This document shows, piece by piece, positions 38,923 through 41,116 of a stretch of 64,000 nucleotides of DNA. Position 1 is the first letter of the stretch. Each line of letters starts with the position of its first letter. The stretch lies in NCBI GenBank assembly GCA_965208105.1, contig OZ242318.1, forward strand, positions 4,064,001 to 4,128,000, given 5' to 3'. The notes beneath the pieces were generated by a model. The model made no database searches and was not told the origin of the DNA. It saw nothing but the letters and a program-made list of their open reading frames with translations. The translations under genes and the position numbers were made by a program. This DNA comes from Candidatus Latescibacterota bacterium (GTDB taxonomy: Bacteria; Latescibacterota; UBA2968; UBA8231).

Positions 38923-39390
38923 ATGGCTGCTGTTTTCCACATTGCGGATCCGGTGGTCACAGGCGACCGATTGAAGTCCCTGCACCGGGACGAGAATGAG
39001 GTGTGGATCCACCCTGAGTCGGTTATCACCCCGACGGCTTGGGACTATATCCGCGAGCGGCGCCTCAGAGTCGTTCGGGACAGCAGGGAGCCACCCGCCG
39101 CCGAGCGGGAAACAGAGGCACTGGTCGGAAACCAGCTGTTGCAGGAAGGCCGGTGCCTGCAGCCCGGCCGATCCTGCGGCTGCCACGGCGACGAGTTCGG
39201 ATCGGGTTTCGTGGAGCCTGCATCCTGCCGGCAATGCGCCATTTTCCTCTTGCAGCGGGAGGGCAAACCCAACGCCGGCTGTGAGGGATGCAACCGCGCC
39301 GGAAGCGAGGGGAAGGATCTGGAAGCATTAGTGGGTCGGATTACCGACCAGATTTTTGCCCGCCTCGGTGAAAAACTGGGGGCAGGCTGA
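38923..39390 (+). CDS. BMC-associated Cys-rich hypothetical protein with C-terminal encapsulation-peptide-like helix
   Basis: GGAGG RBS; N-terminal VITPTAWDYIRE domain; 7 Cys in the middle; C-terminal LEALVGRITDQIFARL; stop overlaps the next ATG (TGATG). Confidence 0.75.
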   Translation: MAAVFHIADPVVTGDRLKSLHRDENEVWIHPESVITPTAWDYIRERRLRVVRDSREPPAAERETEALVGNQLLQEGRCLQPGRSCGCHGDEFGSGFVEPASCRQCAIFLLQREGKPNAGCEGCNRAGSEGKDLEALVGRITDQIFARLGEKLGAG

Positions 39391-39974
39391 TGGGCCAGGC
39401 AATCGGCATGATCGAGGTTGAAGGGGTGGCGGGGATCGTTCTGGCGGCCGATGCGGCCTGCAAGGCGGCCGAGGTGGAACTGTTGGGCTGGGAGTCCATC
39501 GGAGGCAGGACCGCGGTCTTCTTCGGGGGCTCCGTAGCCGCCGTCGCCGCTTCTCTGCAGGAGGGAGAAGAGGCGGCCGGCGAGGTGGTGGAGGAGGTGG
39601 TCGCCGCGCCCCTGAACCAGCCGGTCCCGGCTTGCAGAGAGTTCATCTCCTTCCCACCAGATGGTGGACTGGAAGCTTCTCCCGGAGCCCTGGGGCTGAT
39701 GGAGGCGAGAGGCTATGGAGCCCATGTCCGTTCCATCGACGTCATGGCCAAGGCCGCGGCGGTCAGGGTCTTTCGAGTGCTCAGCGTTCACGATCGGGTG
39801 GTGTGCACCCTGATTCAGGGCAATGTCGGTGCCGTGCAGGAGGCCATCGCAGTTGGCAGGGAGCTGATTGAGTCAAGTCCGTACTTTCGATGCTCCGCCG
39901 TCATCCCGCATCCTGATCCCCAGGTTCTAAAGGCCTTCGGGCAGGCGGGTTCAAGGCGATCATGGCACGGATAG
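39390..39974 (+). CDS. Divergent two-domain BMC shell protein
   Basis: Repeats AIGMIEVEG..DAACKAA and ALGLMEARG..DVMAKAA..GNVGAV..VIPHP. Confidence 0.88.
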   Translation: MGQAIGMIEVEGVAGIVLAADAACKAAEVELLGWESIGGRTAVFFGGSVAAVAASLQEGEEAAGEVVEEVVAAPLNQPVPACREFISFPPDGGLEASPGALGLMEARGYGAHVRSIDVMAKAAAVRVFRVLSVHDRVVCTLIQGNVGAVQEAIAVGRELIESSPYFRCSAVIPHPDPQVLKAFGQAGSRRSWHG

Positions 39975-41116
39975 GTGCTCTGGGCATCGTGGAAACGCGC
40001 GGGATGGCCGCTCTGACCGCCGCCTCGGACTCCATGCTCAAGTCCGCGGATGTTCGCCTCTGCGGCCGTCACGGCATCGGCTCGGGTTGGGTCGCGGTCG
40101 TGGTGGCGGGGGAGGTGGCTGCCGTACAGGTAGCGGTGGACGCAGGCCGACTCGCGGCGGAAAGATACGGCGAGCTCGTGGAAGCGGAGGTGGTGGTGCG
40201 GCCCCAGATGGAGGAAATGGAAGACATGCCCCACCGGGAGGGGATGGCCGCGGCGTCCGGAGAAAGCTCCGGGGCGCTGGGAATGCTGGAGACAAGGACC
40301 CTGGCTCCCCTCATACAAGGAGCGGACGCCATGGTCAAGGCTGCCGCGGTGGAGCTCGGCGGGTGGAGCTCAATCGGCGGTGCCCTGGTGCACCTCGTGG
40401 TGCGAGGCGAGGTCGTGGCGGTGCGCACCGCCCTGGAGGCGGGCCGCGGTGCGGCAGCCAGGACGGGAGAGGTCTACGCGGCCCTGGCGATTCCCCGCCC
40501 CGCCGCCGGGGTGGAGAAGCTTTTTCCGGCGGCCGTGCCTGGAGAGCCGATTGAAGCGGGGGCGCTGGGAATCCTTGAAACGGTGGGTTACGCGGGAGCG
40601 GTCGGGGGCGGCGATGCCATGGTCAAGACCTCCCCGGTGGAGATCCTGCGCCTGAGCGGCGCCAGCGGAGGCCGCATAGCCGTTCTCGCCCATGGCCGGC
40701 TGGACGCCGTGCAGGCGGCCATGGAGGCCGGCGCCTCGGCGGCCCGCCGGTCGGGAGAACTGGACAACGCCTGCATCATCTCGCGGCCCGCGCCCGAGGT
40801 CATATCGCGTTTCGGGGGCGCTGGTCCCGCTTCCCGCGCTTCCGCCGGCCAGGCCCTGGGTTTGATCGAAACGCGCACTGCGATTGGCCTGGTCAAGGCG
40901 GTGGACCAGATGGTCAAAGCTTCCCAGGTGGAATTCGAGGGCCGCTACAAGGCCGGGTATTTCCTTACCGCCGCCGTGGTGCGGGGGGATGTGGGCGCCG
41001 TGCGCTCCGCGTTGGACGCCGGGGCGGAGGAAGCGCGTCGATACGGCGAGTTGGTGGCGGCGCAGCTGATTGCAAATCCACTGGCGGACCTGGAAGGCCG
41101 CCTGCCCCACCGTTGA
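39962..41116 (+). CDS. Four-domain BMC shell protein
   Basis: Four consecutive BMC repeats: ALGIVET..DSMLK, ALGMLET..DAMVK, ALGILET..DAMVK, ALGLIET..DQMVK, each with G-[ERD]-[VL]-x-AV and a terminal RP/NP. Confidence 0.9.
   Translation: MARIGALGIVETRGMAALTAASDSMLKSADVRLCGRHGIGSGWVAVVVAGEVAAVQVAVDAGRLAAERYGELVEAEVVVRPQMEEMEDMPHREGMAAASGESSGALGMLETRTLAPLIQGADAMVKAAAVELGGWSSIGGALVHLVVRGEVVAVRTALEAGRGAAARTGEVYAALAIPRPAAGVEKLFPAAVPGEPIEAGALGILETVGYAGAVGGGDAMVKTSPVEILRLSGASGGRIAVLAHGRLDAVQAAMEAGASAARRSGELDNACIISRPAPEVISRFGGAGPASRASAGQALGLIETRTAIGLVKAVDQMVKASQVEFEGRYKAGYFLTAAVVRGDVGAVRSALDAGAEEARRYGELVAAQLIANPLADLEGRLPHR

Follow-up and report, generated by a model that had tools for sequence, protein, structure and literature searches.

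How does a shell protein with four bacterial microcompartment (BMC) domains fit into shells whose facet tiles are rings of six? This question is raised by two overlapping genes in a 64,000-nt stretch of a Candidatus Latescibacterota bacterium genome (assembly GCA_965208105.1, contig OZ242318.1, positions 4,064,001 to 4,128,000 of the forward strand), hereafter the window, whose own coordinates are used throughout. The first gene (39390-39974, plus strand, ATG start) encodes a two-domain protein of 194 aa, here called T2, and the second (39962-41116, plus strand, ATG start) a four-domain protein of 384 aa, here called Q4. In the accessible portions of the microcompartment catalogue, shells are built from pentamers and from two kinds of facet tile, in which either six one-domain or three two-domain chains come together; the facet tiles are all 6-fold or 3-fold symmetric, and only one- and two-domain facet proteins are defined (PMC8217296). 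We propose that T2 and Q4 form a 1:1 heterodimeric and fully asymmetric pseudohexamer, a reading to which we assign a probability of roughly 0.7. It builds on tool-supported domain content, conservation, strict pairing, positional orthology, and closure of a modelled ring.

A four-domain gene and its two-domain neighbour

The shell domain family PF00936 matched T2 in two stretches (E 2.1e-32, 111.3 bits) and Q4 in four (E 4.6e-77, 254.4 bits; Pfam gathering cut-off 24.5), and a scan of the 4.85-Mb single-contig genome returned the six domains as separate matches of 54-79 bits each (Table 1). Every one of them matches profile positions 1-72 or 1-75 in order, and since the matches run from position 1, the domains are therefore canonical and none is circularly permuted. 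T2 domain 2 is the most divergent of the six, and the three interdomain linkers of Q4 are similar in length. The 13 nt shared by the two open reading frames (39962-39974) are likely the site of translational coupling. The initial annotation of the window had described four full BMC repeats in 39962-41116, a start lying 13 bp inside the end of the two-domain gene, an Asp-x-x-x-Lys edge motif in all six domains, and a different pore-loop string in each (ESIGG, LSVHD, HGIGSG, SSIGGA, SGASGG, YKAGYF); the four PF00936 stretches, the frame coordinates and the translations bear out all of these.

Could the four-domain frame be an artefact of a missed stop, a frameshift or a misassembly that fused two BMC-T genes? 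A protein search (211-672 aa) found 200 relatives of Q4 at E ≤ 1e-5 among 8000 scored candidates, and the 120 that were listed all measure 366-404 aa, with 92-100% coverage and 53-93% identity; the named ones come from metagenome-assembled genomes (MAGs) of Latescibacterota and Gemmatimonadota. Pore loops and linkers are conserved position by position in an alignment of 32 relatives. An 11,065-nt contig from the sponge metagenome of another study covers 38900-41200 with 32 substitutions and without any insertion or deletion, and the four-domain frame is intact in 64 loci of different genomes. The check for a missed stop between domains 2 and 3, for which the initial annotation had called, thus came out in favour of a continuous frame, with no stop or indel in the relatives or in the independent contig. 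Nothing was found on the side of an artefact save one MAG (L062) with its fourth domain in another frame, and given the length of the relatives, the 64 intact loci and the independent contig, we regard this explanation as ruled out for practical purposes.

Metagenome runs of 11 studies, on sponge, marine and coral-reef samples, also yielded contigs with sequence nearly identical to 38900-41200, which suggests a sponge-associated organism. Metatranscriptome contigs from two sponge libraries match parts of T2 and Q4 with 90-99% likeness (40046-40381 in X19 record 4; 39617-39945, 40009-40194, 40541-40760 and 40954-41140 in X20 records 5-8). No contig of these two libraries bridges the T2/Q4 junction, and the uncovered parts carry no meaning; as DNA carry-over is possible in such libraries, they give only a weak hint that the genes are transcribed.

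The most telling property of Q4 is the company it keeps. We scanned one genome per species, which returned 77 loci, and counted BMC domains per open frame with a hidden Markov model (HMM) made from the Q4 domains. A two-domain frame lies directly upstream in 64 of the 64 loci with an intact four-domain frame; 13 others are without such a frame. Loci L065-L070 are cut at contig ends, and L071-L077 are unrelated arrays of single-domain genes. L062 carries T2, then three domains in one frame and the fourth domain in another; the frame shifts in the linker between domains 3 and 4 (3240-4400 of that locus), with an ATG just before domain 4, so that L062 represents either a sequencing error of the MAG or a natural 3+1 split.

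The same coupling of presence and absence appears at the level of genomes. T2 and Q4 profiles were searched separately in 168 genomes of the window's phylum (E ≤ 1e-40 for T2, E ≤ 1e-60 for Q4), and the results are given as plain counts with no test statistic because many of the genomes are related and thus not independent. Of these genomes, 84 have T2 and 83 have Q4, and the coordinates of the two adjoin in all rows compared. In the sole genome with T2 only (G100, 980 contigs), the T2 match ends at residue 162 near a contig end. The pentamer protein BMC-P is present in 146 of the 168, and at least 63 genomes with BMC-P have neither T2 nor Q4; T2 was never seen as a free-standing BMC-T in this set. 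Thus, the question posed in the initial annotation, whether four-domain homologues always sit beside a two-domain partner, can be answered affirmatively for all 64 intact loci, the two being co-present or co-absent in 167 of the 168 genomes. The pair is also found in Gemmatimonadota MAGs.

With the start of Q4 placed at the nearest ATG, GTG or TTG upstream of its first domain, 40 of 65 T2/Q4 pairs overlap (33 of them by 8 nt), 24 are separated by gaps of 1-14 nt, and one by a larger gap. Seven of the 65 pairs (L003, L007, L011, L015, L027, L040, L046) have T2 and Q4 in the same reading frame, with the T2 stop codon and a few codons between them, an arrangement that could either be left over from a six-domain gene or lead towards one. 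P0158 (569 aa), considered as a six-domain fusion, was rejected as it holds only two BMC domains.

The pair is encountered in two contexts, namely full loci like that of the window and T2-Q4 alone, with no other shell gene within 8 kb; T2 and Q4 keep together in the second context too. It applies to G001-G004 (records of L003, L005, L012 and L014), where the other BMC domains belong to two BMC-H genes, about 7 kb apart from each other and more than 1 Mb away from the pair. These four genomes have no ordinary BMC-T, and any shells built there would have no multi-domain facet component other than the T2/Q4 tile.

Six domain positions and the modelled ring

The six domains of the window share only 25-48% pairwise identity. 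A maximum likelihood tree of 209 domains, drawn from the window and from 22 loci and including the BMC-T and BMC-H domains of those loci, placed each position in one clade, with Shimodaira-Hasegawa-like approximate likelihood ratio (SH-aLRT) supports of 100 and 99 for T2 domains 1 and 2, and of 99, 89, 98 and 99 for Q4 domains 1 to 4. The clades of the T2 domains sit on long stems (0.84 and 1.01, the latter being T2 domain 2), and the alignment of 64 T2 orthologues has a mean column identity of 70%. An origin from a triplicated BMC-T was considered and dropped as unsupported: the deep tree lacks resolution, and no odd/even periodicity was seen in the identities among the six window domains.

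Beyond this divergence, what unites the positions is their edge. Among the 64 loci, none of the six domains shows any variation at the Lys of the edge motif; the Asp varies only in Q4 domain 3, where it is still at least 90% conserved, a degree of conservation that, to judge from the alignments, is far beyond chance. The edge lysine of D-x-x-x-K mediates contacts between tiles, and K26 of PduA is termed an “edge mutation” in PDB titles. Pore loops, on the other hand, are conserved within each position and different between positions (Table 1). The residues aligned with the pore-narrowing Ser41 of Q4 domain 1 are Ser, Gly, Gly, Tyr, Gly and Asp (Asn in most relatives), and a conserved His and Arg flank the predicted pore-narrowing position. 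The nature of these residues suggests that a T2-Q4 pore may be selective or occluded.

Structure models point in the same direction. An AlphaFold2 model of the Q4 monomer (32-row alignment) places the four domains in one confident rigid body, with a mean predicted local distance difference test score (pLDDT) of 87.8 and a predicted template modelling score (pTM) of 0.87; the linker between domains 2 and 3 is the best modelled of the three (pLDDT 82/71 vs 69/58 and 70/74). Domains 3-4 (residues 199-384) superpose on the 182-residue chain 6ner_b with Z 20.6 and a root-mean-square deviation (rmsd) of 1.6 Å over 178 residues at 43% identity. Foldseek gave target-normalised TM-scores (TMt) of 0.88-0.91 for Q4 against 6NER and of only about 0.42 against the natural BMC-T chains 3n79, 5dih and 6n06. 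Single domains of T2 and Q4 superpose on PduA, EutM, CcmK and CsoS1 with Z 14-17, for example on PduA 3ngk with Z 17.3 and rmsd 1.1 Å over 89 residues.

When Q4 and T2 were modelled as a pair, on 64-row alignments whose loci were listed in matching order, the interaction prediction score from aligned errors (ipSAE) was 0.85, 0.85 and 0.84, and the best of three controls reached 0.00. Of 80 solved complexes, 58 attain the ipSAE mark applied, as do 2 of 110 mismatched pairs; these counts hold only roughly for the T2-Q4 model, since it was built on alignments of our own. At least 89% of contacts recur between runs, with a partner pLDDT of at least 88. Q4 residues 305-362 (domain 4) contact T2 residues 7-85 (domain 1), and Q4 residues 7-91 (domain 1 and a conserved M-P-H linker motif) contact T2 residues 107-138 (domain 2); residue 139 in the pore loop of Q4 domain 2 also contacts T2. 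In this model, which answers the call of the initial annotation for a 4+2 multimer prediction and passes its controls, the six BMC domains would close one ring in gene order.

From these lines of evidence we infer physical heterodimerisation, incorporation into the shell, and a purpose of the asymmetry. Overlapping and translationally coupled genes would produce T2 and Q4 in roughly equal amounts, and the two proteins would join 1:1 in one flat ring whose six BMC domains follow the order T2 domain 1, T2 domain 2, Q4 domains 1 to 4, and back to T2 domain 1, with Q4 filling ring positions 1 to 4 and T2 positions 5 and 6. The resulting tile would have ordinary hexagon size and six lysine edges and would sit in a metabolosome facet; because of this hexagonal-tile size and these lysine-bearing edges, the ring should fit the facet of the metabolosome encoded in the same genome. 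It would lack any internal symmetry, being made of six separate, anciently diverged domains, and with a different domain at every position, six different loops would therefore line the central pore and each face would present unique surfaces instead of 3- or 6-fold repeats. The asymmetry might serve a selective or gated pore or a docking site present once per tile. That T2 and Q4 constitute one asymmetric six-domain tile had been put forward in the initial annotation, and domain count, pairing, intact frames and the ring-closing model support it in silico.

Several points weigh against this heterodimer. Adjacency and co-occurrence would be equally expected of two separate cooperating tiles, the gap of 175 nt in L048 means that coupling is not universal, and neither the 120 listed Q4-length matches nor the 150 best representatives include a natural six-domain fusion. 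As many BMC hexamers and trimers have been solved, the pass of the complex model may stem from likeness to such rings and not from specific binding. Moreover, supports in the collapsed domain tree range from 0 to 93, so that its deep branches do not fix the origin of the arrangement.

The alternatives differ in what they make of T2. It might be a BMC-T homotrimer next to an assembly of Q4 alone, in which three chains form two linked pseudohexamers or one chain staples neighbouring tiles with two domains each, both products being needed in the same shell. T2 does have the length and two-domain layout of BMC-T, and in the four lone-pair genomes, where its gene is the sole two-domain shell gene, it could act as the BMC-T. 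Linkers of about 20 residues might be long enough to span the distance to a neighbouring tile, and co-occurrence alone cannot tell separate tiles from a heterodimer. Yet we consider this explanation unlikely given the rigid four-domain body of the monomer model, whose linker between domains 2 and 3 is the best modelled, and a complex model that closes the ring via both ends of Q4. Moreover, were T2 a self-sufficient BMC-T, one would expect to meet it without Q4 in some genomes, yet this was never the case, and 63 genomes have BMC-P and neither of the two; the stop/start overlap in 40 of the 65 pairs fits a 1:1 product.

Less probable still is a Q4 ring completed by two BMC-H chains, with T2 as an unrelated partner or a separate tile: this would leave the strict adjacency, overlap and co-absence of T2 and Q4 unexplained, and the model of Q4 with T2 already gives a complete ring without BMC-H, despite the presence of BMC-H genes in every genome examined in detail and the mixed hexamers reported for BMC-H paralogues. 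We attach equally little weight to a role outside the facet, as an internal scaffold or as a cap stacked on another tile. Nothing direct favours it; an N-extended enzyme gene behind the pair in 61 of 64 loci and the small protein unk155 in 49 loci could mean that cargo is organised, but the edge Asp/Lys is kept in all six domains and the domains are canonical, not of the permuted stacking kind. The asymmetric heterodimer thus remains our preferred explanation, and if it is true, a conserved 4+2 arrangement would add to the known shell tiles one without internal symmetry, in which evolution can tune each pore loop, edge and face position separately. Such a tile would bear on the selective permeability of shells and on the positioning of cargo.

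The metabolosome locus around the pair

The shell and core genes that include T2-Q4 span 35389-42243 (Table 1), and genes like those of the window are present in 49-52 of the fetched loci. Its BMC-P gene is the only one in the genome, and the start of the ordinary BMC-T was placed at the Met preceding AEAIGMVE. A second BMC-H gene lies outside the window (G000:C1:2831290-2831517, minus strand, 93 bits), 1.27 Mb from the main locus. Directly upstream of BMC-P, a LytB/IspH gene (34121-35374) is an odd and conserved neighbour for a metabolosome; it is found near shell genes in 18 loci. Further upstream, within 30421-34027, there are genes for a dimethylglycine/sarcosine-dehydrogenase-like protein (DAO and GCV_T domains, 851 aa) and a homocysteine S-methyltransferase. 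In tblastn searches, the former was beside the locus in 6 loci, mostly with 22-30% identity and overlapping the DAO gene, and the latter was seen in L001 only.

Table 1 Features of the shell and core locus in the window and pore loops conserved at each domain position
Feature	Coordinates	Strand	Evidence	Pore loop in window	Conserved pore loop	Edge motif
BMC-P, pentamer (vertex) protein	35389-35694	+	PF03319 85.2 bits, G000:C1:4099389-4099646			
Ordinary two-domain BMC-T	about 35807-36376	+	PF00936 x2; domains 35816-36043, 36116-36343			
BMC-H, single-domain hexamer protein	about 36391-36654	+	PF00936 at 36397-36624, 90.7 bits			
Aldehyde dehydrogenase, metabolosome core enzyme	36736-38163	+	PF00171 E 6.3e-37; seen in 52 loci			
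PduL-type phosphotransacylase, metabolosome core enzyme	38172-38858	+	PF06130 E 8.9e-66; seen in 52 loci			
unk155, 155 aa, no Pfam family	38923-39390	+	tblastn matches in 49 loci			
T2	39390-39974	+	PF00936 x2			
T2 domain 1	39399-39605	+	PF00936 66.2 bits	W-E-S-I-G-G	GW-SIGG-TT	DAACK
T2 domain 2	39687-39914	+	PF00936 54 bits	L-S-V-H-D-R-V-V-C	VLTVH-RVVC	DVMAK
T2 stop / Q4 start overlap, 13 nt	39962-39974	+	ORF coordinates			
Q4	39962-41116	+	PF00936 x4			
Q4 domain 1	39977-40204	+	PF00936 75 bits	G-R-H-G-I-G-S-G-W	GRHG-GSGW	DSMLK
Q4 domain 2	40274-40501	+	PF00936 79.3 bits	G-W-S-S-I-G-G-A-L	GW---GGAL-H	DAMVK
Q4 domain 3	40562-40789	+	PF00936 65 bits	L-S-G-A-S-G-G-R	SGGR	DAMVK
Q4 domain 4	40853-41080	+	PF00936 70.2 bits	G-R-Y-K-A-G-Y-F	YKVGY-LTA	DQMVK
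FAD-dependent oxidoreductase (DAO family), directly after Q4	41152-42243	+	PF01266 E 2e-58; 50 loci			

The two genes that flank the pair in most loci offer a lead to what an asymmetric tile might be for. The stop codon of unk155 and the start codon of T2 have 1 nt in common, and unk155 lies directly upstream of T2 in those full loci where positions were checked. It has no Pfam match at E ≤ 1, and its best Atlas hits score at most 0.85 with none named; the hit at rank 15 is an EutQ-fragment cluster (0.79) and can serve as a lead only. The middle of the protein is rich in Cys, and its C-terminal stretch is amphipathic and a possible encapsulation peptide. Its first ~55 aa are homologous to the N-terminal extension of an enzyme of the dihydrodipicolinate synthase (DHDPS) family (PF00701), with 33-38% identity and pairwise E of 1e-7 and 6e-9 in comparison with the genes at 9726-10907 of L017 and 9749-10918 of L005. 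This enzyme is encoded 12-53 nt after Q4 in 61 of the 64 loci. This small domain, common to the proteins encoded before and after T2-Q4, may serve as a module that binds the shell, and its presence in both hints at a docking site that occurs once per tile.

No DHDPS-family gene lies between Q4 and the DAO gene in the window (41116-41152), in L001 of the same genus, or in L018 and L058, and the DHDPS-family matches of the window genome have only 23-30% identity, none extending over the N-terminal extension. The enzyme, likely the signature enzyme of the metabolosome, thus seems to have been lost in this genome while the shell genes were kept. The combination of DAO, DHDPS-family enzyme and aldehyde dehydrogenase is reminiscent of hydroxyproline or glyoxylate-type pathways. 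On a rather speculative note, the asymmetry might give each tile exactly one specific site. This could be a dock for the ~55-residue N-terminal domain of unk155 and the DHDPS-family enzyme, or else a single asymmetric pore that has Tyr, His and Arg on one side and Gly and Ser on the opposite side and suits one particular asymmetric metabolite or cofactor. If so, this would be a new way to couple cargo or transport to a microcompartment shell. The family is widespread, with Q4 in 83 of the 168 genomes of the phylum as well as in Gemmatimonadota MAGs, and this type of metabolosome belongs to sponge-associated and marine Latescibacterota and Gemmatimonadota.

Comparison with known shell proteins

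No description of a four-domain shell protein or a 4+2 tile was found in the open full-text literature, a search that did not extend to supplements (including Supplementary Data 2 of the microcompartment catalogue) or subscription journals. Likewise, such a protein is not mentioned in the accessible portions of the catalogue (PMC8217296), the locus taxonomy of 2014 (PMC4207490), the study of Poribacteria (PMC3909097) or a preprint on archaeal microcompartments (10.1101/2025.11.08.687404). Within that reach, the literature agrees with the statement in the initial annotation that no shell protein of this kind has been characterised.

T2 and Q4 carry the hallmarks by which BMC shell proteins are recognised, namely PF00936 domains, edge lysines and a context of shell and core genes. 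BMC-T(s) proteins such as PduT and HO BMC-T1 are defined by exactly two fused, non-permuted PF00936 domains, a description that covers T2 alone and not Q4 with its four. They share with the pair the fused non-permuted domains, linkers of ~20 residues, a hexamer-sized ring and edge lysines, and T2 has the same two-domain layout. However, their ring consists of three identical chains, whereas the one proposed here would be split 4+2 between two chains, with no 3-fold axis and six different pore loops. The T2-Q4 tile would thus work like a BMC-T pseudohexamer, yet Q4 falls outside the definition of a homotrimer with two domains per chain. BMC-T(dp) and BMC-T(sp) resemble the pair in being multi-domain and in having pores unlike those of BMC-H, but their domains are circularly permuted and those of T2 and Q4 are not; in the accessible catalogue text, both are permuted tandem proteins, and the dp type stacks as double trimers (PMC8217296).

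Every single domain of T2 and Q4 superposes on the chains of BMC-H hexamers such as PduA. Mixed BMC-H hexamers of the CcmK3/CcmK4 type likewise break the 6-fold identity of the pore, and their stoichiometry and order are variable. They are made of single-domain chains of two paralogues, whereas the chains considered here have two and four domains, and covalent linkage in T2-Q4 would fix both composition and order.

More than two PF00936 domains per chain are also found in three-domain BMC proteins of 283-330 aa in our representative library (P0127, P0130, P0134-P0140, P0147, P0165, P0169, P0170 and P0174), for which no paper was found in the open full-text literature. The five that were tested (P0130, P0134, P0136, P0140 and P0147) each have three PF00936 stretches, and two copies of such a protein could form a six-domain ring. 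According to nine position-specific HMMs, their domains are mostly generic and BMC-H/BMC-T-like, with weak scores and no positional order, and thus differ from T2 and Q4 in not being orthologues of their positions. We had considered them as an alternative partition of the T2-Q4 ring and dropped the idea; not being positional orthologues, they are silent on that ring.

Synthetic shell work aims for asymmetric or singly functionalised tiles, and the molecule that Q4 matches best in structure is itself a product of engineering, the synthetic tandem protein of an engineered Haliangium ochraceum shell (PDB 6NER), which lends the pair relevance for engineering. That protein is a designed chain of two domains, whereas the natural Q4 has four and would need a second gene product, T2, to complete its ring.

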